64,000 nucleotides of DNA from Clostridia bacterium (GCA_017436245.1 JAFSDN010000088.1:10075-74074); one strand, 5' to 3'; positions 10,005 through 57,172 are shown, numbered from the stretch's first letter. Made by a program: numbers and translations. Notes: generated by a model not told the origin, from the sequence alone.

Positions 10005-10502
10005 TTAATTCAATTCAAGTCCGATTATATAGCCGTAGCCTGCACATCTTGGTGCCTTGACTGCAAGACCGTTGCCCACACGGAGGTCGGTTTTTCCGGC
10101 TGTTATGGCATCGTCTGTTTCGGTGACATCGGTTTCAAGAATTAATTTCACATCAAAAAACTGCGGGTCTTCAACCTTGCTTGCTGTTGCTGTGCTGTGG
10201 TCAACGATTGTTCGCTTTGCTTTGGTAACGGAAATATCCTTTATGGTTGAATAAAAACGCTCGGCTTCACCGCAGGTCAGTTTTTCCTTGTTGTCGGCGG
10301 CAAGCTCAAATTCCTTTGCCACAGCTTCGGTAACACGGGTAAGGTCAACGGTGAAGGTTGCCTTTCCTGAGGGGGCAGGCGTTGAATCGGTATTTACGGG
10401 GGCGGATGGCTTCAAAAGCATAAATGCCCCAAGGGCAATTGCTGCCGCAAGAATCAGAATTATGAATGCGTCAAGCAGATTGAATTTTGGCTTAGTTTTC
10501 AT
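10005..10502 (-). CDS. Membrane-anchored hypothetical protein (possibly DUF4330-related)
   Basis: 165 aa with RBS GGAGGT. The N-terminus KFNLLDAFIILILAAAIALGAF forms a single TM anchor, followed by an extracytoplasmic domain. The gene overlaps the upstream GT4 gene by 11 nt. Confidence 0.45.
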   Translation of the reverse strand: MKTKPKFNLLDAFIILILAAAIALGAFMLLKPSAPVNTDSTPAPSGKATFTVDLTRVTEAVAKEFELAADNKEKLTCGEAERFYSTIKDISVTKAKRTIVDHSTATASKVEDPQFFDVKLILETDVTETDDAITAGKTDLRVGNGLAVKAPRCAGYGYIIGLELN

Positions 10503-25799: not shown

Positions 25800-27494
25800 T
25801 TAGTTTCTGGGAAGCCTTAAAGTGACCTCGGTATACTCATTTTCCTTACTTTCTATGTATAGACCATAAGCGTTTCCGTAGTTGAGACGTATGCGGTTCT
25901 GAATGTTTATAAGCCCGATTTTTGCGTTGTCTTTAACCGGTATTGGTGATGAACTGTCTACGGAGGCAAGCTCCAGATTAATTCTATCAAGTTTTTCCTT
26001 GGGTATACCTCTGCCGGTATCTGAAATTTTTATTGTAAGGACATTTTTTTCTGTTGTGGCAGAGATGTTGATGTTGACCCCTTTTTCGTCATAACCCTCA
26101 ACACCGTGCTTGAAAGCGTTTTCAACAATGGGCTGAAGCAACATTTTGAGGCACAGAATTTCTTCTACGTCTTCGGAAATATCAAAAGTGACGGTGAATT
26201 GCTTGGGATAACGGAAAGCCATAATGTTCAGATAGTTTTCAACAATTTCAATTTCATAAAACAACGGAACATTTTTTGCAGCAGATGTGCTGTAACGAAG
26301 CATTTTTGCAAGGGAAACTGCAATTTTGGTAACTTCGGGTGTATTTGATGTGTTGGCAATTCCGCAAATACAATCCAGAGTATTGTATATAAAGTGTGGA
26401 TTAACCTGTGCCTGCAATGCATATAATGCGGCATCCTTCTGGGCGATTTCGCTTTCGTACAGCCTTTGTTGGGTTTGAAAAATATGTCTTGAAAGTTTTT
26501 CGATGTTATCCACCATCTGGTCGATTTGAACTGCAATTATTCCGATTTCGGTCTGACTTTGCAGATTAATTCGTTCGCCCTTGTTGGTCAGAGAGTAGTT
26601 ATTCAAAAATTTCAGAATTTTTTGAATGGGAATATGTATGTTGGTTGTTATGCGGCGATGAGTAAAAATAAACATCAGCGGTATCAGAACAATTTCCAAC
26701 AAAAGAAGCGCAAGAACAATGGAAATGGGAAAGCTGAACGGCATACTGCTGTGAATAGCCCAGTTACCTCCGGGCAGGCTTCTTTTTTCGGAAAAATATT
26801 CCTTGTTTTTATAGTTTTTTGGAGTCAGCACAATGTCGTTTTTGTCACTGCTTTCCTCCCTGAGAAAAAAGTAGGTTTTCTTGTTGGTTGAACCGGGGTT
26901 CATAATCAGCTTGGCTGTGTTTATATTTCCCACCACGATGCAGGTTCCTATGGGTTTTATGTCTACGGCATCGGTTGAGGGGATTTTAATGTCACGACTA
27001 AGGAAAAAATAAACCTCATTGTATAGAGCGTTTGATACAGTAAAAAAAGTGAGAGCATCATTCTTTTCATGGCATGATGAATGGGTTTCACGGATGCTTT
27101 CCAAAAGCTGTGGGCTAATTTCATCGGACATATAGCTTATGTTGTTGTTTTTGTCAATGCAAACGGCAAAAAAATGCTCCTGAGATATATCACGGGTATT
27201 CTGAACCAGATTGGTGAATGATTGTTGTGTTTCGCGGCGATTTTCGGAATTTGGGTTAAGAAAATATGCTGTTGTTTTGGGGGATTTGGAAATGGAATCC
27301 AAAAGAGTGTTGCCGATTTTGATTTTTTGCTCCAGATTACGGTGAACATATGTGAGCTCATTTGAAAATTCGATTTGTTCACGGTCAATGCTTTGAAGGT
27401 ACAAGATGCAAATACAGATGATTTCTATAATGAATATTATAAGCCATGTGCTTATGGTGGAAAGATTTACGATGTTTCTTAAATTGGGTTTCAT
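25800..27494 (-). CDS. Sensor histidine kinase, YesM/LytS-type
   Basis: 564 aa. It has an N-terminal TM segment, a periplasmic-type domain and a second TM segment. It carries the His_kinase motif VNPHFIYNTLDCI and the HATPase motif ISDTGRGIP. Confidence 0.85.
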   Translation of the reverse strand: MKPNLRNIVNLSTISTWLIIFIIEIICICILYLQSIDREQIEFSNELTYVHRNLEQKIKIGNTLLDSISKSPKTTAYFLNPNSENRRETQQSFTNLVQNTRDISQEHFFAVCIDKNNNISYMSDEISPQLLESIRETHSSCHEKNDALTFFTVSNALYNEVYFFLSRDIKIPSTDAVDIKPIGTCIVVGNINTAKLIMNPGSTNKKTYFFLREESSDKNDIVLTPKNYKNKEYFSEKRSLPGGNWAIHSSMPFSFPISIVLALLLLEIVLIPLMFIFTHRRITTNIHIPIQKILKFLNNYSLTNKGERINLQSQTEIGIIAVQIDQMVDNIEKLSRHIFQTQQRLYESEIAQKDAALYALQAQVNPHFIYNTLDCICGIANTSNTPEVTKIAVSLAKMLRYSTSAAKNVPLFYEIEIVENYLNIMAFRYPKQFTVTFDISEDVEEILCLKMLLQPIVENAFKHGVEGYDEKGVNINISATTEKNVLTIKISDTGRGIPKEKLDRINLELASVDSSSPIPVKDNAKIGLINIQNRIRLNYGNAYGLYIESKENEYTEVTLRLPRN

Positions 27495-28237
27495 TCAGAA
27501 ACTCCCCCTTGTTGACGATACAGCTTTGGCGTAACTCCAAAATGCTTTTTGAAAATCTTATTGAAATATACATAATCATAATGCAGAAAATCTGCAATTT
27601 CGCTTATCCACATATCACTTTTCAGCAATAGCTCAGATGCTTTTTGCATCTTTAACTTTACAACGTATTCCGAAAAGTTACAATCAAAATGCTTTACAAA
27701 AAGCTGACTGCAATATGAAGCGTTTATCTGAAACTGTTCTGCAAGCTCGGACAACTGAAGTTTTTCTATATAATGTTTGTCAACATACTGAACCAGTTTT
27801 TTGAATGCCTGACTTGAAAAGTTCTGATAATCCGTTGCCTGATGTGCAGGGCTTTGTTCCTGATCCAATGAGTTTTTCAAATCCAGCATCAGCTTTTTTG
27901 CCGCATTGCTGTCAACCGGCTTGAGCAGATAGCTGAAAACACCGTATTTTATGGATTCCTGAGCGTAAGAAAAGTCGGCATATCCGCTTATTACAACAAT
28001 TTTTATTTTAAGTCCCCGCTGGCGGATTGCTTTGATTAGGTCAAGTCCGCTGAAGCCGGGCATTTTTATGTCTGTGAACAGCACGTCAGGCTGGTTTTCG
28101 ATAATGAATTCCAGAGCGCTGCGCACGTTGGTTGTGCAAAAAGGAGTTTCAAAGTCGAATTGCTCCCAGGGAAAAACGCTTTTTGTGTTTGCAACAGACC
28201 ATACTTCATCATCTACAATTATTGCACGATATGACAT
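27491..28237 (-). CDS. Response regulator with AraC-type HTH output (YesN-like)
   Basis: It has a receiver domain (IVDDE...LFTDIKMPGFSG) and a C-terminal AraC HTH. It overlaps the kinase gene by 4 nt. Confidence 0.88.
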   Translation of the reverse strand: MSYRAIIVDDEVWSVANTKSVFPWEQFDFETPFCTTNVRSALEFIIENQPDVLFTDIKMPGFSGLDLIKAIRQRGLKIKIVVISGYADFSYAQESIKYGVFSYLLKPVDSNAAKKLMLDLKNSLDQEQSPAHQATDYQNFSSQAFKKLVQYVDKHYIEKLQLSELAEQFQINASYCSQLFVKHFDCNFSEYVVKLKMQKASELLLKSDMWISEIADFLHYDYVYFNKIFKKHFGVTPKLYRQQGGVSE

Positions 28238-31400: not shown

Positions 31401-31450
31401 GCAGAGCAGAAGCTGCTGTGATTATATTCAGAATTAACGAAAGGATGTAA
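28442..31450 (+). CDS. Secreted SLH-anchored protein with three copies of an unassigned beta-sandwich-like module
   Basis: 1002 aa with signal peptide ...FPVFA/DD. It has three tandem ~150-aa modules ending WTGTVNRYRLTFD..VEIDYVRFYG, WKGNITRYRFSF..VKIDFVRFYS and WKGKITGLRFVP..VKIDFLRLE. These are followed by an Ig/CarboxypepD_reg-like segment, an acidic helical region, a GSGGSGGSGGSGG linker and a C-terminal SLH triad (FTDLNGYDWAKEAVGALYAQKIINGMGNGRFAP...). Confidence 0.8.
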   Translation: MKKAQYFLMTLVFVINLITFPVFADDSFSGREVLFGSEFDSSDEVDSQRGYTSVEVSDGVAQFVYNQNASNYMYSKTFEVAAEECDMVAIRIKSQVDMDTVKFYYTTDAEPDASSDKVINFSVAASEEWQTVTLNPSNEEKWTGTVNRYRLTFDKQAANTVEIDYVRFYGADSENADSVIWPQADELYPERKLLRSNEFNSMSELDVWRDGYTSVTVKDGYAQFSYKQGTSNYTYSGTFSIPADDCDTVAIKIKSVVDLSAVNFYYMTDSEPNASETKVINFAVPASEDWQLITLDTSDEARWKGNITRYRFSFAAPGDNTVKIDFVRFYSKVFPAYTEDERQISYDFDAINEADGFLGNENVSDVVASEGELWARVIGADSCFTALADYEAKCEDIPRLHIAYENNTNGTAGKLYFTTEENPDFSEECFFAFEISENSPVDCVIDTVENPNWKGKITGLRFVPTDGEGYVKIDFLRLEKFPCQIVVRNGNVEISGNLYGMAGKNIGFSVNDEEGEVYSGTAQTDADGAYTLSFSLDNAPFEPIVYNLEIIGDEIDGIYKRKILYVSEDYVSHVIEKINEAKSNEDWEELQSLIEDNYGVLSLKCEFFEDFSAKGLYLDELYALVVSDEAVEGLTDIEDQLDEAVVGVRINHMTPEEWIAAVDEYDEYLNFKTLVIYEVYSKATDSVKAEIAKRMADSSYNDFEEARFEFREQNILVGLRRAVGWKDVKEIIDANADFIGIDLDKLDKVKSESDVYRRLTEKNFSKIEEVETAFDDAIEAQIDKEKPSGSGGSGGSGGSGGRGFGGGAASVNAPVTNLNNSQKEEASADVFTDLNGYDWAKEAVGALYAQKIINGMGNGRFAPSDSVTREEFVKMLVLKRKLTLSNDASFGDVARDMWYAPYIGAAVKAGITKGQGTAFGVGQLLTRQDAAVMLARAFGISGAESSMNFTDNAEIEDYATEAVNLLTQAGVFTGYEDGSFRPDASLSRAEAAVIIFRINERM

Positions 31451-31452
31451 GT

Positions 31453-34095
31453 GTGATGCGAATGAGTTTTGGTATGAGAATTGTTGCTTCGGTTTTGGTT
31501 TTTGTGCTTTTTGTATCTTGTTTGGGCGTTATGGCAGAGGATATTTATACCGAATCTGATTTGTCCGACTTCAAGGAGAATGTTCGGTTTTTGACTGCCT
31601 TTGATTTGGTTGACAGTAAGGGCAGAGAGGCGGCAACAACCGTTAAACGTGCTGACTTTGCCGAAATTATGATTAAGTATCTGGGTTATGACAACATGAT
31701 ATATGACGGAGAGCTTTTTTCGGATGTTGCTGACAGAAAAAGTGCTGTGTATACCATGGTTCAGCTTGGCTTGATAAACGGATACCCCGACGGGAGCTTT
31801 CGTCCCGACGACAATGTGATGTATGAAGAAGTGGTCAAGGTTTTGGTTACGGCATTGGGCTATCATATGAAGGCAGAGGCTGAAGGCGGTTATCCCCACG
31901 GTTATCTGATGTGTGCATCCACAACCAAGCTCACAGAGGACACCGACGGAGGACTTGGCTCAATTCTTACATATTTTGATTTTGTGCAAATGCTGGTTAA
32001 TGGAATGTCGGTTGACCTGATGGAGCAAAGCATCAGCTCGGACAACGTGACATACACCGTGACACCCGGCAACACATGGCTGAAACAACGTTTTATGGCG
32101 GAAAAACGCCGTGGAATTGTTACCGGAACAAAGGGTGTGGACCTGAACGAGCAGAGCAAGACATGGGAAACGACAATCACTGTTGATAATGTTATTTATA
32201 AAATTGAAGAAGATTGTGAGCATCTTGTTGGCTGTTATGTTGAGTTTTATCCTGATAACGAAAACTATATCAGATATATAAAGGAGCTGGACAACACAAA
32301 ATTTGTGTTTACGGCAGAAGAAATTCAGAGTTATTCGGACAAAACCTATGAGGTGTATGACATTGCGGCAAACAAGGAACGCAAGTATACGCTGGCATCG
32401 GATGCGTATGTCGTATTCAACGGCAGTTCGGCAGAAAGCCTGACCATTGAGGACATGATTCCAAAGTACGGAACCGTGACCCTCATCAACAACGATAAGG
32501 AAAGTGCTTTTGACGTTGTTATTATTGAGAGTTACGACATTTATGTGGTAAAAAATGTGGATGCTGAGGACAAAAGAATTTATTATGAAAATTCGGACGG
32601 AGAATTTCTTGACTTTGCAAAGGCAGAGAGATTGAGTATTGCAGATTCAACGGGCAAGGAGATTCTCTTTGAAAAGATTCCTGCATCAGCGGTTCTGAGA
32701 GTTAGTTTTTCAAAGGACGGCACAGCGGCAAAAATAATTATCAGCCAGAGTCGTGTTAACGGCACGGTTACAAAGATTGTAAGCGACGGTGCGGACAGCA
32801 GTGTGTTTATTGATGATGTGCCGTATAAAATTGCACAAACCGTGTTCCCATTGGAAAAATGCAAAATCGGCATGAGCGGAACATTCAGACTGGATTCGGA
32901 AGGTCTCATTGTTAAGTTTGAGGAATCAGCAGACAAATATTCGGTTGGCTGGTTGCTTTCGGCAGGGATTGAGGAGGGCTTTAATCAGCCCTTAAAGCTG
33001 AGAGTGTTTGATGTTTCGGGACAGATTCTTGTTCTGAATACGGCAAAAAAGGTTAACATTGACGGATTAAAGGGCAGAAATTATGCAGAAGTTCAGGAAA
33101 TTCTGAAAAAAGGCACAAACAGCATTATGCAGCAGATGATACGCTTCAAGCAAAATGCTTCGGGCGAGGTTTATGAAATTGACACGCCATATAACAATGC
33201 TCCTGCTCTGGGCGACGGTTATCTGTCGGCAAAGCCCGAAAACGGCGAAAGTGAGTATGGCTTCAGACTCATTTATTCGGGAAGTCTGGGTTATTATGCA
33301 AGGCTCAATACCTTGGGCGGAAGAATAAATGTTTCAGGCAATACACCGATTATAAATATTTTTGGCGATGATGAAAGAGACTGGAAAGCAACAACCGTTG
33401 CAGGACTTACCGACACCAGAGGCTACAACATCAAGGCATATTCATTTGGTACTGACGAAAGATTTGCAAGTGTGATTTTTATTAGCGAAAGTATGTCGGG
33501 CGGAAATGCAAGAGGCGTTATTTCAGGTGTTGAAACCGTCCTTGATATTGACGGAATTCCTGAATATGAATTTGTTGTTCAAACACAAACACACGGCACT
33601 TTGCATTTGCGTTCCAAAGAAAATGTTGCAAAACCTTATAAAGCCGATGCAAGTAACACAAAGAAGTATGCAATTGAAGTCGGCGACATTGTTGAGTGTA
33701 CATTTACGGGCAACAATGCAGATTCCTTTGCGATGATTTACAAGTATAGTACGGGTGAGCTTCCTGCAGGATATACAAGTTCGCCGGGAATAGGTCCGGG
33801 AGAAGCTCATGAAAGATATTCCTTTGGTACAGTATACTCTCAGGAAAAAGGCTATATCAATATCACAAATGTGGATTTGGCAGGCGGAGCTGTTCCCACG
33901 CAGGAACAGCTTGAGTCACATTGCTGGTCGGCATTTACGATGATGAAGGTTGAAGAGGTCCGTGGCGAAGTTAAGGTGACAAATTCGGTGACAGCGGCGG
34001 ATATTCTGGATTATAAAGCTGCCGGAAGTGCGGCATCAAAAGCATTTGTTGTGACAAACTGGGAATTCCCGAGATTTATTGTTATTTATGAATAG
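31453..34095 (+). CDS. SLH-domain surface protein, paralog of the 21684-24548 product
   Basis: 880 aa with a signal peptide and N-terminal SLH repeats (FSDVADRKSAVYTMVQLGLINGYPDGSFRPDD). It shares a GGYPxGY motif and colinear downstream blocks with the other protein (e.g. AYVVFNGSS...KYGTVTLINNDKESAFDVVII versus PVYIYNGKF...KTGNLILLDTDVNNVYDIVFV). The start is GTG 31453 or ATG 31456. Confidence 0.8.
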   Translation: MMRMSFGMRIVASVLVFVLFVSCLGVMAEDIYTESDLSDFKENVRFLTAFDLVDSKGREAATTVKRADFAEIMIKYLGYDNMIYDGELFSDVADRKSAVYTMVQLGLINGYPDGSFRPDDNVMYEEVVKVLVTALGYHMKAEAEGGYPHGYLMCASTTKLTEDTDGGLGSILTYFDFVQMLVNGMSVDLMEQSISSDNVTYTVTPGNTWLKQRFMAEKRRGIVTGTKGVDLNEQSKTWETTITVDNVIYKIEEDCEHLVGCYVEFYPDNENYIRYIKELDNTKFVFTAEEIQSYSDKTYEVYDIAANKERKYTLASDAYVVFNGSSAESLTIEDMIPKYGTVTLINNDKESAFDVVIIESYDIYVVKNVDAEDKRIYYENSDGEFLDFAKAERLSIADSTGKEILFEKIPASAVLRVSFSKDGTAAKIIISQSRVNGTVTKIVSDGADSSVFIDDVPYKIAQTVFPLEKCKIGMSGTFRLDSEGLIVKFEESADKYSVGWLLSAGIEEGFNQPLKLRVFDVSGQILVLNTAKKVNIDGLKGRNYAEVQEILKKGTNSIMQQMIRFKQNASGEVYEIDTPYNNAPALGDGYLSAKPENGESEYGFRLIYSGSLGYYARLNTLGGRINVSGNTPIINIFGDDERDWKATTVAGLTDTRGYNIKAYSFGTDERFASVIFISESMSGGNARGVISGVETVLDIDGIPEYEFVVQTQTHGTLHLRSKENVAKPYKADASNTKKYAIEVGDIVECTFTGNNADSFAMIYKYSTGELPAGYTSSPGIGPGEAHERYSFGTVYSQEKGYINITNVDLAGGAVPTQEQLESHCWSAFTMMKVEEVRGEVKVTNSVTAADILDYKAAGSAASKAFVVTNWEFPRFIVIYE

Positions 34096-34105
34096 GAGGA
34101 ATAAG

Positions 34106-37100
34106 ATGAAAAGGCTTTTCAAAAAGATAGTTTTATTTTGTTTGACAGCGTTGCTCCTGATTGAAAATCTGCCTGTTTTTGCGGATATCCAAATCAGCGG
34201 CGAACAGGATGATATGACGGTTAAAACCTATATTTATGACAGTTTTACCTTCCCCATTTCTTTGAACGGAGATGTACGCTATTCGGGTTGGGATTTGAAC
34301 CGAATCGGAGGCGAATCTGTTGAGGGAGTTCCAATGCGTTTGAAGGACACAAGTCCCATTTTGCCCGTTGAGGCAAAGCGTGAGCTGGAACCTATTACCT
34401 TTGGTGAGGTTGAACTTGATTTTCATATTTCGGCAATCAGCCTGATGAATGATTCGTATTTCGGATTACGTACAGGAACAGACTGTGCCATAAATTTTGG
34501 TTTTGACAAGGAATATCTCTGGACGGAGGGTTCGGGAGAACGTCAGAACCTGCTTCGCTACAAAACAGGTGTTACCTATGCAGTAAAAACGCTTATTCAT
34601 ATGGAAAAAAAGACCTTTGATGTGAGTGTTGACGGCAAGCTGTGTGCGGAGGGAGTGCCCTTTGATGAGGAGTTTTTTGATAACTTCTTTGTGAGCACAG
34701 GCAACGAAACCGTGGGACAGCTTAATCTGGAGTACATATATATTACCCGCGGTTACTGGGTTAATGAGCTGTTTAATATGAGCCATTCCTGCCTGCCCCA
34801 TGACTGGAGCCTGAAAACTGTGGATGCTTTGGGCAGACCCATTGCGTCGGACGAAGGCGTGCAGGGCAAGGGCTACTTTGAGGTGGTGAGTCGAAACGGC
34901 AATACGGTGCTTTCAAAGAGCTTTGATGCACAAAGTGATGACTTCACCTTTGATTTTCAGATGAATATTCCAAAGTTCCGTGACGGTATTGAAATTGCGT
35001 TGAAGGGCGGCGATGAAGAAGTCCTGAAAATCTCAGCCGACAAAACAAGCTTTTATTATACCGACAAAGCAGGTAACCCTGTGAGCTTTTATGATTATAA
35101 GGACAACATTTGGTATACCTTCAAGGCAAAGGTGAATTTCAGCAGAAAAACCTTTGATTTGAAGCTCAACGGAAAGGTGATCAAGGAGAATATTCCTCTC
35201 AATGCATCGGCGGCTTCGGTTGATACCCTTGAAGTATCAAGCAAAAAGTCTGAAAACTCATTCTTCTTTGACAATGCAAAGCTTTATCCTCAGGAGCATT
35301 TTGAGGATTATGTTCCCGAACCCAAGGTTGCCGAGAGCAAGGGCGTTGACATTGGTATGCAGCATTGTCCTTTGTGGTGGAACGGCTATCATGCAGGATG
35401 GGACTGGGTTAATGATTCGGATTACCGTGTTCCTGTAAACGGCTTTTATGATGAGTCAAGCCCCGAGCTTTGGGACTGGGATCTCAAGTATATGTCCGAG
35501 CATGGTGTGGACTTTATCTGGTACTGCTGGTATAAGATGGCAAATGAGGGTGACCCCATTCACCCTGCTGATGACCAGCCTGCTTTGCAGGAGGGATATT
35601 TTGAAGCAAAGTATTCCGACAAGGTGAAGTTTGCCCTGATGTTTGAAAACGGTTATGTTAAAGACCCCTTTGGCATTGACCAGGCACTTAACACGGAAAG
35701 GTTTTTGGAGGATGTTGCACGTTACTGGCTTGAATATTTCTTCAAGGACCCCCGCTATTATACAGTTGAGGGCAGACCCTTAATCAGCTTCTATGACCCG
35801 TGGAATTTCAGTGCATATTTTGGCGGTCATGGAAAACAGTTTATAGAAAGTCTTGGGGATATGTGTGAGGCAGAAGGCATCGGCAGACCCCTTGTTGTGT
35901 TCTCTCACAGAGGAATGGCGTATTCCGATATGGCGGCAATGAATCCCGACAGCGCGGTGTACTGGTACAGCATGGGTTCATGGCCCAACGATGCAATAGA
36001 TGCAAGTCTTACCAATTACAAAAATGTAACAGGCGCAGGCTTGGGTTATATTCCCACAATCTCCAACGGCTTTGACAGATATGCATGGAATCAGCATGAA
36101 ACAGGTGTATTTTATGATAACGACGACATGAAGCGTGCTCTGGAAAGATACCGTGATGAGATTCTGACCTTGCCCAACAAGTTCAAAACTCCCATTGTGA
36201 TGCTTAGTACATGGAACGAATACGGCGAGGGGCATATCTTTGCACCCACAACATGGAACGGCTTTGGTTATCTTGACGCTGTGCGTGAGGTCTTCACCGA
36301 TGCAGGCGAGCATGATGATATTACTCCAACTGAGCATCAGCTTGACCGTTTCAACAACAACTATCCCCACAACAGAAATACTCTTGACCGTGAGGTGGAT
36401 GTGGGCAGAGTTCCCGATGAAAATGCCTATGAAAAATATAAATGGGATTTTGATGATTCAAATAAACCCGGCTGGAAGGTAACGGTTGCAAATGATTCGT
36501 CCATTACGGACGGGGTGCTGAAGATGACTGCAGGAGGCGGTCAGGTTCAGCTTTCACTCACCGACAGCGGCATTGACACAGCAGAGGTAACTCACATAAA
36601 GCTGAGAGTGAAAAACAGCGGTTCATGCGACAACACAAAGGTTCAGATTGCAACTAATTTTGAAAAGGTTCATGCGGGACACGCAATTAACAACGGCATT
36701 ACTCCCAACATGGAGGATTTCACGGATTATTACATTTCAGTGGGCAAGTATCCTGCTTTCTGGCGAGGAATCCTTGAAAGCCTGACAATTGATTTCAATG
36801 CAACAAAAAAGGGCGATACCGTTGAAATTGATTCCATTGCATTTATGGCGTTGCCTCAAGAGGGTGATGTGACCCTTTCAATAAACAAGTATACCGAAAA
36901 GGTTAATGCAGTTTTCCGAGACGGCTTGCCAATGCTTCATCTCCGCAAGGCTGTTGATGCACACGGAACCTTCAGCGAGGCAGACCCCAAAATCCATTGG
37001 GAGGCTGAAACTAACAAGGTGTATGTGCGAAAGGGTGCATCTGTCCTTGAATTTGTGCCGGGTGAGGCAGAGGTAATCTGCAACGGCAAAGCGTATAATC

Positions 37101-38173
37101 TGCCCAACTCTTCCGAGCTTATTGACGGAGTTACATATGTTAATGCAGAAATAATCTCTCTTGCATTCAGCGAAAATGTTGTCTGGGATGAGGAGCAAAA
37201 GATTATGACTCTAACCGACAACACAAAGGAAGTGGAGCTGGTTCGTCCCGTAAGCGAGCGCAAGCTCCTCTGGTCGCATGAGATGGACAGCATGACAGGA
37301 ATAACATATTATCTGAATATGAATTCAGCAGGTATGTCTGACGGCGTATGGAACTATGTTACAACAACGGGCGATCCGCAGTTTTATACATCTATTACTC
37401 CAAACCTTAAGTGTGAGGAAGCAAAGTACATAGCAATTGGTTTGAAGGTTGATAAATCATCCATGATGGACTTCTACTTTGAAACTGTTGAAAACCCCGG
37501 CTGGTCGGAGGGCAAGGTGTTCAATTTGGGAGGTTCGGTTTCATCTGATATTGTGGAGTATGTCATTGATACATCACTTTCCAACTCGTGGACAGGAAAC
37601 CTAAAGACCATAAGATTTGATGCATCTTCTATGCGTGACACAAACTGTTCGGTTGACTATATCAGAATATATGGTGATTATGAATATGAGCTGACTCAGG
37701 AGGACATTATTCAGCGTTACGACACACGTGTGACTGCAGGTGATGAAATTATCTGGAATTTTGACCTGAACAATAACCGTGACGGCTGGGTTGGCAGCAA
37801 ATCCTTGGCAAATCTCACAACCGCTGCAGGGCGACTTAATGCGGATATAATCGACAAAAAGCCTTTCTTTGAAACAGCGGCTCAGAGCCTTGAACTTTCG
37901 GCGGATGAGTACAAAACTCTGGAAATCTGTTTGAAGAACACAAGCGGCGGCAAGACGGCAAAGGTATATTTCATAACAGAAGATTCAAAGGATTGGTCGG
38001 AAGACAAGAGCTTTGAAATTTCACTTTTGCAGAACGATATTGCAGGGGTTGTTTACAAGATAAATGCTTTTGAAAACGAGGCATGGAAAGGCGGCCTGAA
38101 AGGACTGAGAATTGTTCCCACAGATGTTACGGAAGGTTCGGTGTGTATTGATTTTGTAAAGCTGAAAAAGTGA
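34106..38173 (+). CDS. Giant secreted multidomain protein with a WbsX/GH99-like TIM-barrel domain
   Basis: The start was set at ATG 34106 (MKRLFKKIVLFCLTALLL..VFA/D) after AGGAGGA. The N-terminal region of about 400 aa looks beta-sandwich-like (LamG/ConA-like, low confidence). The central domain, about nt 35340-36300, has the motif order CPLWWNGYHAGWDW...GFYDESSPE...EHGVDFIWYCWY...STWNEYGEGHIF...GFGYLDAV, which matches my recollection of PF14307 (WbsX)/GH99-like proteins. Three copies of the W-x-G...ID-[YF]-[IV]-R module and one Cu-amine-oxidase-N-like stalk segment follow. Confidence 0.75.
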   Translation: MKRLFKKIVLFCLTALLLIENLPVFADIQISGEQDDMTVKTYIYDSFTFPISLNGDVRYSGWDLNRIGGESVEGVPMRLKDTSPILPVEAKRELEPITFGEVELDFHISAISLMNDSYFGLRTGTDCAINFGFDKEYLWTEGSGERQNLLRYKTGVTYAVKTLIHMEKKTFDVSVDGKLCAEGVPFDEEFFDNFFVSTGNETVGQLNLEYIYITRGYWVNELFNMSHSCLPHDWSLKTVDALGRPIASDEGVQGKGYFEVVSRNGNTVLSKSFDAQSDDFTFDFQMNIPKFRDGIEIALKGGDEEVLKISADKTSFYYTDKAGNPVSFYDYKDNIWYTFKAKVNFSRKTFDLKLNGKVIKENIPLNASAASVDTLEVSSKKSENSFFFDNAKLYPQEHFEDYVPEPKVAESKGVDIGMQHCPLWWNGYHAGWDWVNDSDYRVPVNGFYDESSPELWDWDLKYMSEHGVDFIWYCWYKMANEGDPIHPADDQPALQEGYFEAKYSDKVKFALMFENGYVKDPFGIDQALNTERFLEDVARYWLEYFFKDPRYYTVEGRPLISFYDPWNFSAYFGGHGKQFIESLGDMCEAEGIGRPLVVFSHRGMAYSDMAAMNPDSAVYWYSMGSWPNDAIDASLTNYKNVTGAGLGYIPTISNGFDRYAWNQHETGVFYDNDDMKRALERYRDEILTLPNKFKTPIVMLSTWNEYGEGHIFAPTTWNGFGYLDAVREVFTDAGEHDDITPTEHQLDRFNNNYPHNRNTLDREVDVGRVPDENAYEKYKWDFDDSNKPGWKVTVANDSSITDGVLKMTAGGGQVQLSLTDSGIDTAEVTHIKLRVKNSGSCDNTKVQIATNFEKVHAGHAINNGITPNMEDFTDYYISVGKYPAFWRGILESLTIDFNATKKGDTVEIDSIAFMALPQEGDVTLSINKYTEKVNAVFRDGLPMLHLRKAVDAHGTFSEADPKIHWEAETNKVYVRKGASVLEFVPGEAEVICNGKAYNLPNSSELIDGVTYVNAEIISLAFSENVVWDEEQKIMTLTDNTKEVELVRPVSERKLLWSHEMDSMTGITYYLNMNSAGMSDGVWNYVTTTGDPQFYTSITPNLKCEEAKYIAIGLKVDKSSMMDFYFETVENPGWSEGKVFNLGGSVSSDIVEYVIDTSLSNSWTGNLKTIRFDASSMRDTNCSVDYIRIYGDYEYELTQEDIIQRYDTRVTAGDEIIWNFDLNNNRDGWVGSKSLANLTTAAGRLNADIIDKKPFFETAAQSLELSADEYKTLEICLKNTSGGKTAKVYFITEDSKDWSEDKSFEISLLQNDIAGVVYKINAFENEAWKGGLKGLRIVPTDVTEGSVCIDFVKLKK

Positions 38174-38396: not shown

Positions 38397-40094
38397 ATGA
38401 AAAAACGTATTATTTCTCTAACCCTGACACTTTTGATGGTGTGCAGCTTGTTCACCATCGCACCCGTATCTGCGGCTGCTGGTGTAACGGCAACCTTGCC
38501 TGACGGCACAGTTGTTGAAAACTTCACCAAGGATTACAGCAGACACAACAATGTTCTCAATTTCTCCTTTGAAAAGAACATTGACACTGAAGAGCTTTCG
38601 AACGAAAGCGTAACCGTAAACGGCGTTGCTGCGGCAAAGGTAATTGCCACAGGAAATAACTCCATTCAGGTTGACATGGGAACACTCAGAAACATCACAC
38701 GTTACCGTGTTGAATTCCCCGGTGTTCTGGACATGGAATGGAATCCTGTTGGCGGACAGTTTGTGTTCACAACCGGAACAGGCGTTATCCGCGGAATGGA
38801 ATTCACATGGGATTCTATGCCAATAAATCCTGCCTATAATACGGTTGACTACGGTATTGAATCCTGTGAGCATAATAAGGCTGACGGAACAGTTACCTTT
38901 AAAACAACAAAAGGAACATGGGGAACTTTGTTTGAAACATATGTTAACGCATTTGGCGAAAATATTGCAACAAATGACATCAAGCAGATTGTTATGCGTG
39001 CGAAGACAAACGTTACGGGTAACTTCTATACTTACTTTGTTCTGGGCGACAAGACATATGTTACAGGCGACCATGACAGAGAGGTTCGTGCAGGTTGGAC
39101 AATTCAGGCAAGTGATGAATATCAGGAATATATCCTTGATGCAAGTGCTTTGAATCAGGAGGTTTGGCCCAATCAGACCTTAAATCTTATAAGAATGCAG
39201 ATGCCCGAAAATGCAACGGTTGACATTGACTACATCAGACTTGTTACTTATGATTATGAAACAAACGGCTATCTTGCAGACTGGGATTTCACCAACTTCC
39301 AGAACCCGATAGGCTTGGGTACTGTTAAAAACAGCAATGTACCTGAAGGTATACTGAGAGAAGACGGTATTTATTTTGAAGCAGCAACATGGGGCGGCCC
39401 CATTGGTACTGCAAACGCATATCAGATGAATATCAATCCTGTAACCGTTGCTAAGTTTGAATATCATGCACTTGATACATTCGGTATTGAAAATCTGGGA
39501 ATATATATTGTGAGAGCCGGTGAATTGACAGCTCCGCCTCCTGTTAACGAAAATCAGCGCTTCCAGCTTCAGCAGTTGGGCGGTGGCGGAAACTGGCACA
39601 CTTATAATCTGACACCTGAACACGCAACATACCCCAACAATGACTGTAACTGGCTGTTCTTCTTTACAAATAAAGTACCGGATATGCCGGCATGGGATTT
39701 TCTTATCAAGTACATAAAGATGTACCCCGAAAACTGGGTTGAAAATCCTGTGAATGTTCCTGTTACAACATATGAGCTTGTGAGCGGATTTGAAACAGCA
39801 GATGAAGCTGTACTTTCAGGAAGCGTTCCTGCAGGCAGTGTAACAGCAGTTACAGGCGGTTTCTATAACACCGATTCTGCAAAAAAGGATGTAACATTAG
39901 TTGTTGCGCTTTACAAGGATAATGCACTTGTAGACGTAAAAATGAACAAACAGTCAATCACGGGTCATGGATACCTCTCTCAGCTTGACGCAACAGTTGA
40001 AGTACCCGACGAGGGTTATGAGGTTAAGGCATTCCTCTGGGACGGCGCAACACCCATGTATGATGTACTTACAAAGGACAACAGCAGTTTGTAA
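38397..40094 (+). CDS. Secreted protein, paralog of the C-terminal third of the 43737-48332 product
   Basis: 565 aa with signal peptide ..TIAPVSA/AAG. It is colinear, with no indels detectable by eye, with the last ~533 aa of the 1531-aa protein. It contains an Ig-like segment (VTVNG...RYRVEFPG), the W...VDIDYIRLVTY module, a second variant module and a C-terminal Ig-like domain (VTLVVALYKDNALVDVKM...VKAFLWDG). Confidence 0.8.
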   Translation: MKKRIISLTLTLLMVCSLFTIAPVSAAAGVTATLPDGTVVENFTKDYSRHNNVLNFSFEKNIDTEELSNESVTVNGVAAAKVIATGNNSIQVDMGTLRNITRYRVEFPGVLDMEWNPVGGQFVFTTGTGVIRGMEFTWDSMPINPAYNTVDYGIESCEHNKADGTVTFKTTKGTWGTLFETYVNAFGENIATNDIKQIVMRAKTNVTGNFYTYFVLGDKTYVTGDHDREVRAGWTIQASDEYQEYILDASALNQEVWPNQTLNLIRMQMPENATVDIDYIRLVTYDYETNGYLADWDFTNFQNPIGLGTVKNSNVPEGILREDGIYFEAATWGGPIGTANAYQMNINPVTVAKFEYHALDTFGIENLGIYIVRAGELTAPPPVNENQRFQLQQLGGGGNWHTYNLTPEHATYPNNDCNWLFFFTNKVPDMPAWDFLIKYIKMYPENWVENPVNVPVTTYELVSGFETADEAVLSGSVPAGSVTAVTGGFYNTDSAKKDVTLVVALYKDNALVDVKMNKQSITGHGYLSQLDATVEVPDEGYEVKAFLWDGATPMYDVLTKDNSSL

Positions 40095-42696: not shown

Positions 42697-42711
42697 AAAG
42701 GAGAGAATGTT

Positions 42712-43736: not shown

Positions 43737-46700
43737 ATGAAAAAATTCGTTGCACTTTGCTTACTAATATCAATGTTCGCCTGCTTTTTGCCAATGAATG
43801 TGGCGGCTGATGTGGACGATGACCCTTGTGCCAAAACCTTTCTGGATACCTCCATGCTTGTGAATCAGGCTGACAAAAACGGTAATACTGTTATTTCGGG
43901 CTGGGACCTTAACACGGCAGGGGGAACAATTCATCCAAGAGCCTTTTTGCAGATGGTTGACACAAGCACAGAGTTCCCTGTTGAGGCTGTTCGTGCAATA
44001 GATGATATTGAATGTGGCGAGGTTACTTTTGAATTTTATGTTTATCTGGACAAAAGTATGCCGGGGCTTTCCATTCGTCTTGCAAAAGGTTTTTCAAAAC
44101 AGATGTCATTTGATTTTGAAGCGGAAGGACTGTATTTATCGGGCAACAATGGTGAACGGGTCTTTGTTGCTGAAACGCCAATAGGTTCTTTGTTTGGGGT
44201 GAAAGCCATTGTTGATATGGACAACGGCTGCGCAACTGTGTATGTGGACGGAATACGTGCGGTGACGGATGCTCCGATTTCGGTGGGTACTATTAATAAG
44301 GTTATTGTGAGCACAGGTGCGGAAACGGTTGGTGCTTTTATACTGCAGACAATCCGTATTTATCGGGGTTATGCATTGAACGAGTTTTTTACCGCAAATA
44401 ACGGTCAGTTCCCTTCGGAATGGGATATTGATGTACCCTCGGGAGTAATTGCAAAGCCTGCTCTTGACTCAACAAGCGGCGACATAACTCTGTCAAAGAG
44501 CTTTGACCCGCAAAGGGGAAATCTTGTTTTTGAATTTCAGACACGTCTGCCAAAAAAGCGGAGCGGTGTTTCATTTACGCTGAAAAACGGAAGTGATTCG
44601 GTGCTTTCGTTAAAAGCCAAAGAAAACGGATTTTATTTTGGAGATTCTATATTTTTAGGTGCGTACAAAGAGGATATATGGCAGCATTTCAGAGTGAAAA
44701 TTGATACGGAATCAGGAAATGCCGATATACAGATAAACGGTAAGCTTGTGAAAGAAAATGTCAGTATTCCAAAGAACAAAGCGGTTGACTCCTTTGAAAT
44801 ATATGTTGCCAAGGCAACAAACGGAAAGGTTTTTGCAACAGACTTTTTGCTGTATGAGGAGGAAATACCCGCTGATTATCCATCATCGCCCGTAAAGGCT
44901 GATTCGGAGGGGGTTGCAGTTGGTGTTCAGACCTGTCCTTTGTGGACTGAAGGACGGCATGTTGGCTGGGACTGGATTAATTCTGCCGAGCCAAGGATTC
45001 CGCTGCTGGGCTTTTATGACGAGTCATCACCTGAGGCGGTTGACTGGCAAATGAAGTATATGGCAGAGCACGGCATTGACTTTCAGTGGTGCTGTTGGTT
45101 TATGCCGGGCACACCGGGAAATCCCATAAAGGATATTGATGCGTCAAGATATTTGCACAACGGTTATTTTAATGCAAGGTATTCGGATGCTGTGAAGTTT
45201 GCAATCATGTGGGAAAATGCAGGAACGTACACATGGACGACCGACCCTGCATATAACCGCGAAATGTTCCTCAAGCACATTGCTCCCTTCTGGATTGAAT
45301 ATTATTTCAAGGATTCGCGGTATTTCAAGTCGGGCGGACATCCCATTGTGGGTATATACAGCTATGATAAGTTTATGACAGCCTTCAAGGACAGCACAAG
45401 CGGTTATTCGGAAATACTCAGTATGATGAATGAGTTCAAGCAGATGTGCGTTGATGCAGGTGTTGGCGCTCCCTTTGTGGTTTTGCAGGAATATCCCATT
45501 GCCTCTGACTTCGGCAACGAGGGAGCACATTATGCAAAACGGAATCAAATGGGCTTTGACGGGTTTTATACATATGGTTATAACACAAGCTGCTGGACTG
45601 AACGTCAAAAAGAGGCTCACCTGATGGGACGGGACAATGCATCGCAGCTGCGGTTTATTCCCACCTATCACAGCGGCTTTGACACAAAGGCATGGGACGG
45701 AGCTTCGGGCATAACGCTGACACCACAGCAGTTTGAAGACCTGCTCCGTGACGGCAAGGAGAACTTTTTGCCAACGTTGTCCTATACGAATCTTGACGAA
45801 CCCATTGTTATGCTGGCATCCTGGGACGAGCATGGCGAAGGTCACGCAATTATGCCAAACAAGGGATACGGTTTTGGGTATCTTGATGCGGTGAAAAATG
45901 TTTTTGCACCCGGTGAGCATACCCATGCAGAGCCAACAGAACAACAAAAGGAACGTATTTCCACGGCATATCCCACAGGACGCAAGGTGCCTTTGCGTGA
46001 GAAAATCACAGACCTTGGAGACGAGCAGAATCATACAGTTGTAAAGGGGTGGTATTTTGATTCGGACTCGGAGGGGTGGACAGGCGCTTCTTGGGAAAAT
46101 GGTTGCCTGAAAGCCACATCGACCATTGGGTTAAATAATGCAGATGTGGAAGCAATTGATGCGGATTACATTCGCTTCAAAGTGAAAAACCAATCCGATT
46201 CGTACTCGGCAACATTTACATACACAACTAACTTTTCTGAAAATAACAGCTCAAGGATGATATATATTGGCGGAAAAAGCTCTGATTTCACAGAAATATC
46301 GGTGCCTGTTTCAAAGCACGCTGACGATTGGCGGGGCAATATAGAAAAACTTAATGTTGTATTTAACGGTATTGGTGATGGGCAATGCGTGCTTATAGAT
46401 TCGATTGAATTTTTGAAAACATCACAAAATGGCAATATGATTGGTGTTGACGGTGTTTGGCTGGAAAGCGGCCTGATTCAAAGGCACGAAAAAAAATATC
46501 TGCCATTTGCGGAAGCTAAAAGTCTTTTTGGATTCAAGCATTACATAACCGAGGACGGAACATTTTGCTTTGAGGGCAAAAACGCTGTGGGAAAAGAAGC
46601 CCTTGCGGAAAGTGAGGCATTATTTGAGAACGAGGGGATTTTGTACTTGAGTGAAGATGTGTTTATGTCGCTGACTGATGAAAAGCCGCTGTTTCAGTTG

Positions 46701-48332
46701 GATTTAACCAATTTGGAAGCAGGGGGAGCATATCTGCCCGACGGCACGCAGATTGAGAATTTTGCAAAGAATTACAGCCGACACAACAATGTTCTTATCT
46801 TTGCATTTGACCAAAATTTAGATGGCCAATCCTTTGAACCTCAAAGTGTGACATTGAACGGTTCACCTGTTGCTTCGGTTGAGGCTTTTGGAAATAACGG
46901 AATCAAGGTTGATTTGGGTGTGCTTTCAAACATCACACGTTACCGTGTTGAATTCCCCGGGATTAAAACGGCTGATTTTGAACCAGTGGGCGGACAGTTT
47001 GTGTTCACAACAGGAACGGGTATTGTTGGAGGAATGGAATTTACAAACAACACTTCTCCGTTGAATTCTGCTTATATGACAGGCGATTACGGTATTGAAT
47101 CATGTGAACACAATGCCGCAAACGGAACAATAACAATAAAAACAACAAAAGGTACATATGGCACAGCAATTCAGACATATGCCAATGCCTTTGGCAAAAA
47201 AATTCCCACAAATGATATTAAGCAGATTATTATGCGTGCAAAAACAAATGTGACAGGAAACTTCTATACATATTTTATGCTTGATGACAAGGAAATCCCT
47301 GTGGGAAACAACGACCGGGAGGTTCGGGCAGGCTGGACAATTCAGGCAAGTGACGAGTATCAGGAATATATCCTTGATGCAAGTGCTTTGAATCAGAGTG
47401 TATGGCAGGACAAAGCGTTGAATGTAATCAGAATGCAGCTTCCTGAAAACGCAACGGTTGACATTGACTACATCAGATTGGTTACCTATGACTACGAAAC
47501 AAAGGGCTATCTTGCAGACTGGGATTTCACAAATAAGCAGAATCCAATTGGCTTGGGAACAATCAGAAATGTGAATGTTCCTGAACCGGAATTGAGAGAT
47601 GACGGTATATATTTTGAAGCCGCAACATGGGGCGGACCAATGGGAATTGCCAATGGAAATCAAATGCTTTTCAATCCTTCAAGCATAGGAAAGTTCGAGT
47701 ATACTGCGCTGGATACTTACGGCATAGAAAACTTTGGAATATATCTTTTGAAAAGAGGAGATATAATAACACCGCCGAGTGTTTCTGTGAATGAGCGTTT
47801 TCAGCTGCAACAGCTATCGGGTGGCGGCAGATGGAACACATACACTCTCACACCCGAACATGAAGAATACCCAAACAATGACTGCAACTGGTTGTTTTTC
47901 TTTACAAACAGAAAGTCCGGTCAGACCTACTGGGATTTCCTTCTTCAGGACATAAAGATTTATCCCATAAACTGGGTTGAAAATCCTGTGAACGTTCCTG
48001 TGGCAACATATGAGCTTGTGAGCGGATTTGAAACCGTGGACGAGGCTGTTCTTGACGGATGTGTGCCTATGGGTGACGTGACAGCAGTTGCAGGCGGATT
48101 TTATAACACAGGCTCAGCACCCAAGGACGTAACTTTGGTTGTTGCTCTTTACAAGGACAATGCCCTTGTGGACGTCAAAATGAATAAGCAGACAATCATG
48201 GGCAAGGGCTATCTTTCTCAGCTTGATGTAACCATAACCGTGCCCGGCGAGGGCTATGGGGTGAAGGCGTTCCTTTGGGACGGTGCAATGCCTATGTGTG
48301 ACGTGCTTACAAAGGACAACAGCAGTTTGTAA
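43737..48332 (+). CDS. Giant secreted multidomain protein with a WbsX/GH99-like TIM-barrel domain (paralog of the 34106-38173 product, with an extra C-terminal block)
   Basis: 1531 aa with signal peptide ..PMNVAA/D. The N-terminal region is colinear with the 34106 protein (ISGWDLNTAGGT versus YSGWDLNRIGGES). The central domain, about nt 44910-45910, has CPLWTEGRHVGWDW...GFYDESSPE...EHGIDFQWCCWF...ASWDEHGEGHAI...GFGYLDAV. Next come a W-x-G module (WRGNIEKLNVVF..VLIDSIEFLK), a stalk-like segment and a C-terminal ~533 aa duplicated from or to 38397-40094. Confidence 0.75.
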   Translation: MKKFVALCLLISMFACFLPMNVAADVDDDPCAKTFLDTSMLVNQADKNGNTVISGWDLNTAGGTIHPRAFLQMVDTSTEFPVEAVRAIDDIECGEVTFEFYVYLDKSMPGLSIRLAKGFSKQMSFDFEAEGLYLSGNNGERVFVAETPIGSLFGVKAIVDMDNGCATVYVDGIRAVTDAPISVGTINKVIVSTGAETVGAFILQTIRIYRGYALNEFFTANNGQFPSEWDIDVPSGVIAKPALDSTSGDITLSKSFDPQRGNLVFEFQTRLPKKRSGVSFTLKNGSDSVLSLKAKENGFYFGDSIFLGAYKEDIWQHFRVKIDTESGNADIQINGKLVKENVSIPKNKAVDSFEIYVAKATNGKVFATDFLLYEEEIPADYPSSPVKADSEGVAVGVQTCPLWTEGRHVGWDWINSAEPRIPLLGFYDESSPEAVDWQMKYMAEHGIDFQWCCWFMPGTPGNPIKDIDASRYLHNGYFNARYSDAVKFAIMWENAGTYTWTTDPAYNREMFLKHIAPFWIEYYFKDSRYFKSGGHPIVGIYSYDKFMTAFKDSTSGYSEILSMMNEFKQMCVDAGVGAPFVVLQEYPIASDFGNEGAHYAKRNQMGFDGFYTYGYNTSCWTERQKEAHLMGRDNASQLRFIPTYHSGFDTKAWDGASGITLTPQQFEDLLRDGKENFLPTLSYTNLDEPIVMLASWDEHGEGHAIMPNKGYGFGYLDAVKNVFAPGEHTHAEPTEQQKERISTAYPTGRKVPLREKITDLGDEQNHTVVKGWYFDSDSEGWTGASWENGCLKATSTIGLNNADVEAIDADYIRFKVKNQSDSYSATFTYTTNFSENNSSRMIYIGGKSSDFTEISVPVSKHADDWRGNIEKLNVVFNGIGDGQCVLIDSIEFLKTSQNGNMIGVDGVWLESGLIQRHEKKYLPFAEAKSLFGFKHYITEDGTFCFEGKNAVGKEALAESEALFENEGILYLSEDVFMSLTDEKPLFQLDLTNLEAGGAYLPDGTQIENFAKNYSRHNNVLIFAFDQNLDGQSFEPQSVTLNGSPVASVEAFGNNGIKVDLGVLSNITRYRVEFPGIKTADFEPVGGQFVFTTGTGIVGGMEFTNNTSPLNSAYMTGDYGIESCEHNAANGTITIKTTKGTYGTAIQTYANAFGKKIPTNDIKQIIMRAKTNVTGNFYTYFMLDDKEIPVGNNDREVRAGWTIQASDEYQEYILDASALNQSVWQDKALNVIRMQLPENATVDIDYIRLVTYDYETKGYLADWDFTNKQNPIGLGTIRNVNVPEPELRDDGIYFEAATWGGPMGIANGNQMLFNPSSIGKFEYTALDTYGIENFGIYLLKRGDIITPPSVSVNERFQLQQLSGGGRWNTYTLTPEHEEYPNNDCNWLFFFTNRKSGQTYWDFLLQDIKIYPINWVENPVNVPVATYELVSGFETVDEAVLDGCVPMGDVTAVAGGFYNTGSAPKDVTLVVALYKDNALVDVKMNKQTIMGKGYLSQLDVTITVPGEGYGVKAFLWDGAMPMCDVLTKDNSSL

Positions 48333-48369
48333 GTGCAAAATTGAGAAAATATATTCAGGAGGAATAAAA

Positions 48370-49818: not shown

Positions 49819-49837
49819 CAAGAAAGGAATGACGAAA

Positions 49838-52594: not shown

Positions 52595-52608
52595 AGGTGA
52601 AAAGCACT

Positions 52609-55794: not shown

Positions 55795-55805
55795 GGAGGG
55801 CAAAA

Positions 55806-57125: not shown

Positions 57126-57172
57126 ACAGGGTTTTGAAGCGGGGGATTATGTTGAAAAAAACGAAAACGGGA

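Follow-up and report, generated by a model that had tools for sequence, protein, structure and literature searches.

The enzymes of glycoside hydrolase family 99 (GH99), among them BtGH99 from B. thetaiotaomicron (PDB entry 4acy), BxGH99 (4ad1) and human MANEA (6zfq), are (beta/alpha)8 barrels with an N-E-x-x-E-G motif after strand 8 and a conserved glutamate after strand 3. In the published account (PMC6001782), E333 of BxGH99 is the general base acting on the 2-OH, E336 is the general acid, and the proposed mechanism includes a 1,2-anhydro-sugar intermediate. Bacterial members are exported and open a polymer, yeast mannan, for uptake. Here we describe a relative of these enzymes encoded at 34106..38173 on the + strand of a 64,000-nucleotide stretch of DNA (the window). 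The product, termed WbsX1 in what follows, is a secreted multidomain protein of 1355 amino acids (aa) whose core, judged from sequence profiles and a predicted structure, is a distant homologue of the CAZy family GH99 lying within a divergent, mostly exported subfamily of the Pfam family PF14307. The fold, the strand-3 glutamate and the strand-8 motif of GH99 all recur in WbsX1. The protein exceeds them by about 1000 residues and carries additional units of the lectin-like, Cu_amine_oxidN1 and carbohydrate-binding module (CBM)-like kinds. Its Gram-positive host, moreover, takes up sugars by an ATP-binding cassette (ABC) transporter rather than a SusC/D pair.

The second described group is that of the classical WbsX proteins, which share with WbsX1 the Pfam family and the motif order, with AWNEWAEG at the place of the E-x-x-E motif, and are represented here by a Desulfolutivibrio protein (WP_163303035.1) and by wbsX of Burkholderia gladioli. 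The former is encoded on plasmid NZ_CP045505.1 (locus L085, 5805-9962) as a signal-less protein of 1385 aa in which GT2 and RgpF are joined to a PF14307 domain scoring 412 bits; its neighbours are ABC-exporter, sulfotransferase, aminotransferase and WbqC genes, an O-antigen-type cluster. The latter is treated as an O-antigen glycosyltransferase in a 2026 paper, in which wbsX mutants alter the O-antigen. WbsX1, by contrast, scores 48 bits, is exported, lacks a glycosyltransferase (GT) domain and sits in a catabolic locus, and so departs from the cytoplasmic, GT-linked WbsX of biosynthesis clusters, a contrast which the original prediction had already drawn. The distant WbsX1 relatives found by tblastn of plasmids are all GH99-like by RefSeq name.

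WbsX1 is a bona fide but divergent member of a family recognised by both Pfam and NCBI. PF14307 (Glyco_tran_WbsX) matches it with 48.3 bits (E 1.3e-12) against a curated gathering cut-off of 25.1, which upholds the parallel to this family that had been proposed from the motifs. The barrel motif series can be followed as far as W-N-E-x-x-E-G and F-G-Y-L-D; it is kept across 47 homologues, and WNEWAEG is also present in the 412-bit core member of the family. Two further Pfam families, PF07833 (Cu_amine_oxidN1) and PF22585 (Sialidase-like CBM), complete the three which match the protein, while an NCBIfam scan of the whole of WbsX1 matched no family model. A search with aa 395-775 against 5.8 billion proteins returned 76 matches, essentially all of them PF14307 proteins, the nearest sharing 36% identity with the catalytic domain. 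Those homologues which have a name at NCBI are called 'glycoside hydrolase family 99-like domain-containing protein', and Pfam, we assume, places PF14307 in its TIM-barrel glycosidase clan. The likeness to GH99 is therefore on record in the databases, where the Pfam name remains 'glycosyltransferase WbsX'. Since the family is already recognised and named in this way, the surprise is modest and it is the activity of the branch that remains of interest; the original prediction is correct, yet less surprising than proposed.

The relationship to GH99 itself emerges at the level of profiles. A single-sequence phmmer search of the PDB with the WbsX1 domain gave zero matches, so that a family profile was needed. 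The profile built from the 47 homologues of the catalytic domain (A1) found BtGH99 at E 5.5e-4, placing NWNEyGEGh on SFNEWHEGT. Comparison of A1 with 30 GH99 sequences by hhalign gave a probability of 97.6% (E 4e-12) over 256 columns, in an alignment which runs from GFYDESSPE (GAYSSRDP in GH99) through FGYLDA (YLDY) and pairs the beta3 Glu, the beta6 G-x-D...Y, the beta7 G-aromatic and the beta8 NExxEG motifs of the two families. The AlphaFold2 model of aa 395-775 (mean predicted local distance difference test score, pLDDT, 83.7; predicted template-modelling score, pTM, 0.89) alternates strands and helices in a TIM barrel of the GH99 type. Searched against the PDB with Foldseek, this model finds GH99 structures at all of ranks 1-33 (E 6e-12 to 2e-8, template-modelling (TM) scores 0.50-0.63), BtGH99, BxGH99 and MANEA being among the top matches, and then GH71 (ranks 34-35, including Agn1p) and GH113 beta-mannanase. 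The GH99-like fold which had been put forward for checking is thus borne out by four independent lines: the profile match to BtGH99, the hhalign comparison, the predicted model and its Foldseek matches. No PF14307 members were found by sequence among the PDB entries, and no solved structure of a member of the exported branch was found. The GH71 alpha-1,3-glucanases (Agn1p, 8yfh/9m6l) form a second tier of fold matches (E 4e-7 to 1.5e-6, TM 0.44-0.47), and weak precomputed PF03659 matches occur on some members of the PF14307 subfamily; WbsX1 itself has no PF03659 match and GH71 appears only at those lower ranks, and membership of GH71 was rejected.

The candidate catalytic residues correspond to those of GH99. 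The pair E705-x-x-E708 in WNEYGEG (36218..36229, +) is invariant in all 47 homologues and aligns with the E-x-x-E pair of the GH99 motif NEWHEG, so that the conservation of the NEYGEG glutamates, on which the original prediction had been made to depend, holds. The conserved acidic residue E514 in KFALMFEN (35645..35647, +) lies at the end of strand 3, at a position where 45 of 46 homologues have Glu and which aligns with the Glu of the GH99 'HIEPY' motif. The invariant columns of A1 are, in WbsX1 numbering, H466, G467, C474, W703, E705, E708 and G709, and W[ND]ExxEG is found in 141 of the 148 top cluster representatives of a wider profile search. E705 and E708 would thus supply the two carboxylates of the GH99 E-x-x-E arrangement; PDB titles among the Foldseek matches include the E333Q and E336Q variants of BxGH99. 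The chemistry of WbsX1 most likely follows that of GH99, with E705 and E708 as the carboxylate pair and E514 helping, and cleavage would probably proceed with retention of configuration.

The explanation we favour, with a probability of roughly 65%, is that 35288-36430 (+; aa 395-775) would be the catalytic barrel of a secreted glycan-cleaving hydrolase which feeds an importer. A sugar importer and intracellular glycosidases are encoded next to WbsX1, which, for this reason, most likely degrades external polysaccharide as food. A number of observations weigh against this explanation. The GH99 model of Pfam, PF16317, finds no match on WbsX1 at E <= 1, identity to GH99 is just 13-16% and the TM-scores of the model are 0.5-0.6; with homology at the profile level only, WbsX1 is a distant homologue of GH99, and true membership of that family was rejected. 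WbsX1 also departs from the subfamily consensus at near-invariant sites, such as P to R at aa 539 and G to R at aa 594. The beta6 Asp and Tyr (D615 and Y619) align only in a pairwise comparison with a paralogue, and then with a one-residue gap. MAFFT sets WbsX1 out of register at the strand-6 G-x-D...Y motif, which gives an apparent loss of these residues; as the pairwise alignment restores both, they may be retained and are not counted as lost. The cytoplasmic Desulfolutivibrio protein of a biosynthetic cluster, in which PF14307 is joined to GT2 and RgpF, also has this E-x-x-E, and hence the pair alone is no proof of a degradative role. Finally, a search of the literature on PF14307 and GH99-like proteins found no activity data or biochemical study of any member.

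The gene itself is well defined. An open reading frame (ORF) spans 34079..38173 (+) in the window, and translation is placed to start at the ATG at 34106, which has an AGGAGG ribosome-binding site 6 nt to its 5' side. A gene call on a 139-kb public ENA metagenome contig gives an identical 1355-aa product, in agreement with the protein first proposed at 34106-38173. All seven motifs quoted for the core recur in the translation with the same sequence and order between 35366 and 36283 (+): CPLWWNGYHAGWDW from C421 (35366-35407), GFYDESSPE from aa 446 (35441-35467), EHGVDFIWYCWY from aa 465 (35498-35533), KFALMFEN from aa 508 (35627-35650), GRPLISFYDP from aa 556 (35771-35800), STWNEYGEGHIF from aa 701 (36206-36241) and GFGYLDAV from aa 719, ending at V726 (36260-36283). 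The signal peptide claimed for the protein is likewise apparent. Read from the translation, the N-terminus MKRLFKKIVLFCLTALLLIENLPVFA|D (aa 1-26; 34106..34183, +) combines a basic n-region, a hydrophobic core and a small-residue cleavage context of the Sec type, and it passes a crude test for a hydrophobic h-region.

The surroundings of WbsX1 match, in gene content and layout, the utilisation loci of Gram-positive bacteria, in which a kinase/AraC-type regulator and a DUF3502-type ABC importer accompany multimodular enzymes and cytoplasmic exo-glycosidases. On the - strand, a histidine kinase (25800-27494; Pfam His_kinase/HATPase_c) and a response regulator with an AraC-type helix-turn-helix (27491-28237; Response_reg/HTH_18) form a two-component pair (25800..28237) divergent from a block in which, from 28442 to 57125, all genes lie on the + strand. 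The block opens with two SLH-anchored secreted proteins with signal-peptide-like N-termini, one of 1002 aa which also carries a CBM-like module (28442-31450) and one of 880 aa directly upstream of WbsX1 (31453-34095). The importer named in the original prediction lies 2 kb downstream of WbsX1: a lipoprotein-like solute-binding protein with DUF3502 (40229-41701) and two ABC permeases (41725-43635), all assigned by Pfam, are separated from it by a single gene, which encodes a secreted protein of 565 aa. No importer ATPase gene was found in the locus by Pfam, and the importer presumably uses a shared ATPase encoded elsewhere. Next comes the paralogue WbsX2 (1531 aa; 43737..48332; PF14307, 54.3 bits), which has the same N-terminal and catalytic architecture, is 34% identical to WbsX1 over 940 aa and keeps the motifs KFAIMWEN and WDEHGEG. 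Further downstream, the block encodes a GH38 alpha-mannosidase (49835-52594), a HAD hydrolase (52597-53535) and a GH30 protein (55791-57125), again Pfam assignments. By a crude hydrophobicity test, signal-peptide-like N-termini are found on WbsX1, WbsX2, three SLH proteins, the 565-aa protein and the binding protein; the same test finds none on the GH38, GH30 and HAD proteins or on proteins of 483 and 477 aa encoded in the same block.

With its regulator, ABC importer with lipoprotein, secreted enzymes and signal-less glycosidases, the locus is a polysaccharide utilisation locus (PUL) of the Gram-positive type. To this extent the PUL context first proposed for WbsX1 stands; a PUL of the Bacteroidetes kind was rejected, because a SusC/D pair is missing and the host is of the Gram-positive kind. 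Among the main ORFs of the window over 200 aa, Pfam revealed no SusC-like or SusD-like domains. A Gram-positive host is indicated by the SLH domains and by the closest relatives, which belong to Lachnospiraceae and to metagenome-assembled genomes (MAGs) of Clostridia: the closest homologues of WbsX1 come from Lachnospiraceae bacterium MD329 and from Clostridia MAGs of mouse, human and ruminant gut. Together with a GC content of 43%, these features point to a member of the gut Clostridia as the probable host. No convincing terminators were found between 28000 and 47900; otherwise the counts of terminators (16 against 17.9 expected) and of promoter-like sites (60 against 39.5) lie near those of shuffled controls and say little.

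A possible course of events can be read from this arrangement. The divergent sensor kinase and AraC-type regulator would switch on the block from 28442 to at least 57125. WbsX1 and WbsX2 would then be exported and held on the polysaccharide by their lectin-like and CBM-like modules, alongside SLH-anchored surface proteins bearing the same CBM-like module. Here they may cut the polymer to oligosaccharides, probably within the chain, and the fragments would be taken up by way of the lipoprotein binding protein and the two permeases. In the cytoplasm, the signal-less GH38 and GH30 proteins and accessory enzymes would complete the breakdown. The extracellular glycan-cleaving role which had been argued from context for WbsX1 thus gains support, with signal peptides on the proteins that would act outside, none on the GH38, GH30 and HAD proteins, and a regulator and an ABC importer in the same locus.

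Relatives of WbsX1 are numerous. At least 539 came to light when genomes were scanned, their hosts including gut Clostridia, Paenibacillus, Planctomycetota and Verrucomicrobiota. Multiple copies in one genome are frequent, and in several MAGs there are three to five. When 1.84 billion cluster representatives were searched with a profile, 9486 matched at E <= 1e-3, a count which also includes classical WbsX and GH99 proteins, 4100 at <= 1e-10 and 1283 at <= 1e-30, so that the exported PF14307 subfamily, taken at this last threshold, comprises at least 1283 clusters at 50% identity. The top 148 cluster representatives have a median length of 997 aa, and a signal-peptide-like N-terminus is present in 95 of the 140 which begin with Met. 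Most typical of this subfamily is a secreted protein of several domains, and the context of WbsX1 is not very unusual within the branch. Homologues of about 1000 aa without a signal-peptide-like start are found in gut Eubacteriales MAGs (L010, L020, L022, L024, L030, L043, L048, L054, L055, L059, L063, L066 and L077-L080), from which it seems that the exported subfamily includes cytoplasmic members too.

The neighbourhoods of these relatives were compared over 80 related genome loci, with 10 kb around each, and a census of Pfam domains was taken of 119 neighbours from 23 loci. The same type of transporter adjoins homologues in 13-19 of the 80 loci, in Paenibacillus as in gut Clostridia, with 46-58% identity in the former. 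In the census, ABC permeases (15) are followed by AraC regulators (9), DUF3502 binding proteins (8), Gfo/Idh/MocA oxidoreductases (6) and GDSL esterases (4), and GH2, GH78, DUF2961 and further PF14307 proteins are also present. All four of the closest loci (L002-L005) have a counterpart of the 1002-aa SLH protein; orthologues of the kinase and regulator adjoin the closest homologues in L002, L003 and L005, and the 880-aa SLH protein has a full-length counterpart in L004 and L005 only. A GH1-like gene follows the closest homologues. Elsewhere, glycyl-radical enzymes and phosphoesterases (GDPD, His_Phos, Metallophos) are encountered. As the neighbours are consistently catabolic yet varied, the catabolic role appears to be conserved, while the partner enzymes are not and the substrates probably are not either.

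The substrate can be approached only indirectly. In GH99 chemistry, the sugar in the -1 subsite needs a 2-OH positioned to attack C1, as in alpha-mannosides. This requirement, and the presence of a GH38 protein in the block, make an alpha-manno-configured glycan, for example fungal mannan or mannoprotein or N-glycans, our leading guess for what WbsX1 cleaves, albeit a tentative one. The hints of mannose lie in the GH38 protein of the same co-directional block and in its nearest solved relatives, the alpha-mannosidase SpGH38 of S. pyogenes (2wyh) and a GH38 of E. faecalis; for the GH30 protein the closest solved structures are SrfJ and glucosylceramidase. Against a mannose substrate stand the related loci, none of which has a GH38 or GH30 gene within the 10 kb compared, and whose glycosidases vary from one to another between GH1-like, GH2, GH78 and DUF2961 types, in the company of glycyl-radical enzymes and phosphodiesterases. 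The neighbours are too varied for any glycan to be named from conserved context, and since no member of the family to which the candidate depolymerases belong has been characterised, the target cannot be read from the locus itself.

The same variety lends some weight to a different view of WbsX1, namely that it is a secreted catabolic enzyme whose chemistry or mode of action is not that of GH99: it could be exo-acting, could attack a sugar other than mannose (rhamnose, glucose or a phosphodiester-linked glycan) or could invert configuration. GH78 rhamnosidase, GH2 beta-mannosidase-like, DUF2961, Gfo/Idh/MocA and GDPD/His_Phos/Metallophos neighbours would all be at home in such a scheme, as would the GH1-like gene after the closest homologues and the GH30 of glucosylceramidase/SrfJ type in the locus, and the next-best folds after GH99 are those of alpha-1,3-glucanases (GH71) and a beta-mannanase (GH113). 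We nevertheless regard this as unlikely, because the beta3 Glu, beta6 and beta7 motifs align with GH99 besides the E-x-x-E pair, which argues for shared chemistry, and the block also encodes an alpha-mannosidase of GH38. It is, moreover, more typical of endo-acting depolymerases to carry several binding modules on a very large protein. More improbable again is a purely non-catalytic role, in which WbsX1 would be only a glycan-binding protein of the surface. This idea draws on the best structural match of the model, OpGH99A (5ngw, a 'glycoside hydrolase-like protein'; E 5.9e-12, TM 0.59-0.61), which the A1 profile also finds (E 0.004) and in which, by the profile alignment, Asn and Ile replace the two catalytic Glu residues; the departures of WbsX1 from the subfamily consensus at several conserved positions point the same way. 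OpGH99A may be a non-catalytic relative (no paper on OpGH99A or 5NGW was found in the literature). In WbsX1 and its paralogue, however, E514, E705, E708 and the WNE...EG context are intact and the E-x-x-E pair is invariant across the subfamily, and the pseudo-enzyme reading was rejected as very improbable.

It may also be asked whether WbsX1 serves the cell's own surface, building or remodelling an S-layer glycan or the secondary cell-wall polymer bound by SLH domains, be it by transglycosylation, by trimming chain length or in the manner of a glycosyltransferase, which would suit the name WbsX. Retaining chemistry of the GH99 type can in principle transglycosylate. Classical PF14307 proteins with the same E-x-x-E are fused to GT2 and RgpF in O-antigen-type clusters, and wbsX is regarded in the literature as encoding an O-antigen glycosyltransferase; the locus is rich in SLH proteins, and GT4, Wzy_C-like and MurJ genes lie about 20 kb upstream. 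Yet WbsX1 is far from the biosynthetic type in its PF14307 score (48 against 412 bits), is exported and has no GT domain. Its gene has an inducible AraC-type two-component system on one side and an ABC importer on the other, signal-less exo-glycosidases are encoded further downstream, and the co-directional block has no nucleotide-sugar, flippase or polymerase genes. The same types of importer and regulator recur beside its homologues. We thus consider a role in the cell's own envelope distinctly unlikely, and the degradation of an external glycan by WbsX1 remains the preferred explanation.

It is attractive to consider that the exported PF14307 subfamily represents a glycoside hydrolase family which is still unclassified and which applies the epoxide (1,2-anhydro-sugar) mechanism of GH99 to a substrate beyond Glc/Man-alpha-1,3-Man-alpha-1,2; in the present locus, WbsX1 and WbsX2 together with GH38 might open fungal alpha-mannan or mannoprotein to gut Clostridia. 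This is a speculative extension, and we think it rather doubtful as a whole. To our knowledge, the use of fungal alpha-mannan and mannoprotein has been attributed mainly to Bacteroides. The branch is large and mostly exported, and it recurs beside sugar importers in gut and soil bacteria. A substrate, if found, would give a function to thousands of 'GH99-like' proteins and bear on whether the rare epoxide mechanism of GH99 extends beyond mannosidases; it might also reveal a route by which gut Clostridia reach a class of glycan outside their known range. With two paralogues retaining intact GH99-type residues, an importer, a regulator, and alpha-mannosidase and beta-glycosidase genes, the locus is a well-defined test case.

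The GH99-like catalytic domain of WbsX1 is flanked by several other modules. Two tandem beta-sandwich modules of the lectin/LamG type (aa ~30-394; 34196..35287) occupy the N-terminal part, where PF22585 matches two stretches (E 9.8e-9). This lectin-like unit is kept in the paralogue and precedes the catalytic domain in 47 of the 80 related genome loci; a homologue search with the N-terminal modules of WbsX1 returned nothing at E <= 1e-5. Behind the barrel follow a CBM-like beta-sandwich module A (aa 775-920; 36428..36865), which can be aligned both to modules B and C and to those of the SLH protein, a Cu_amine_oxidN1-type domain (PF07833, E 1.7e-13; aa 928-1034; 36887..37207), and the CBM-like modules B (aa 1047-1190; 37244-37675) and C (aa 1208-1355; 37727-38170), which were delineated by alignment, AlphaFold2 and PDB matches and share 31% identity with the repeats found at the N-terminus of the 1002-aa SLH protein (28442-31450). 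The unit of about 145 aa which underlies A, B and C belongs to no Pfam family and is present in three copies in WbsX1, three in the SLH protein (28526-29881) and one in the paralogue (46050-46439). Its AlphaFold2 model (pLDDT 86.2) is an all-beta sandwich whose best PDB matches are CBM8, CBM86, CBM4, CBM29, CBM28 and CBM11 (E 4e-5 to 1e-3), and it may be an unclassified carbohydrate-binding module. WbsX1 itself has neither an SLH domain nor a sortase motif.

The secreted 565-aa protein (38397-40094, +), which has no Pfam match, shares 72% identity with the last 548 aa of WbsX2 (aa 985-1531; 46689-48332) and looks like a recent duplication which would have freed the non-catalytic tail as a separate protein. 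Behind WbsX2 lies the gene for the signal-less 483-aa protein (48367-49818, +), which matches no Pfam family above threshold; it shows a weak BT_1020-like beta-propeller match (E 0.002), had no relatives in the metagenome scan and yielded only noise in a PDB search. The end of this gene overlaps the longest ORF for the GH38 protein, whose start is therefore probably the ATG at 49835. The signal-less 477-aa protein (54361-55794, +) is weakly similar to M14 carboxypeptidases (Pfam, E 0.006), and an L-serine dehydratase is encoded at the end of the gene block (57134-58372, +); that the two hint at a glycopeptide substrate is pure speculation. A further SLH protein, of 954 aa (21684-24548, +), is a paralogue of the 880-aa protein (24% identity over 549 aa), and Pfam recognises no domain in either outside the SLH repeats. 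Finally, the GT4, Wzy_C/O-antigen-ligase-like and MurJ flippase genes at 10492-15113 (-) form an envelope-glycan group which is separate from the catabolic locus.

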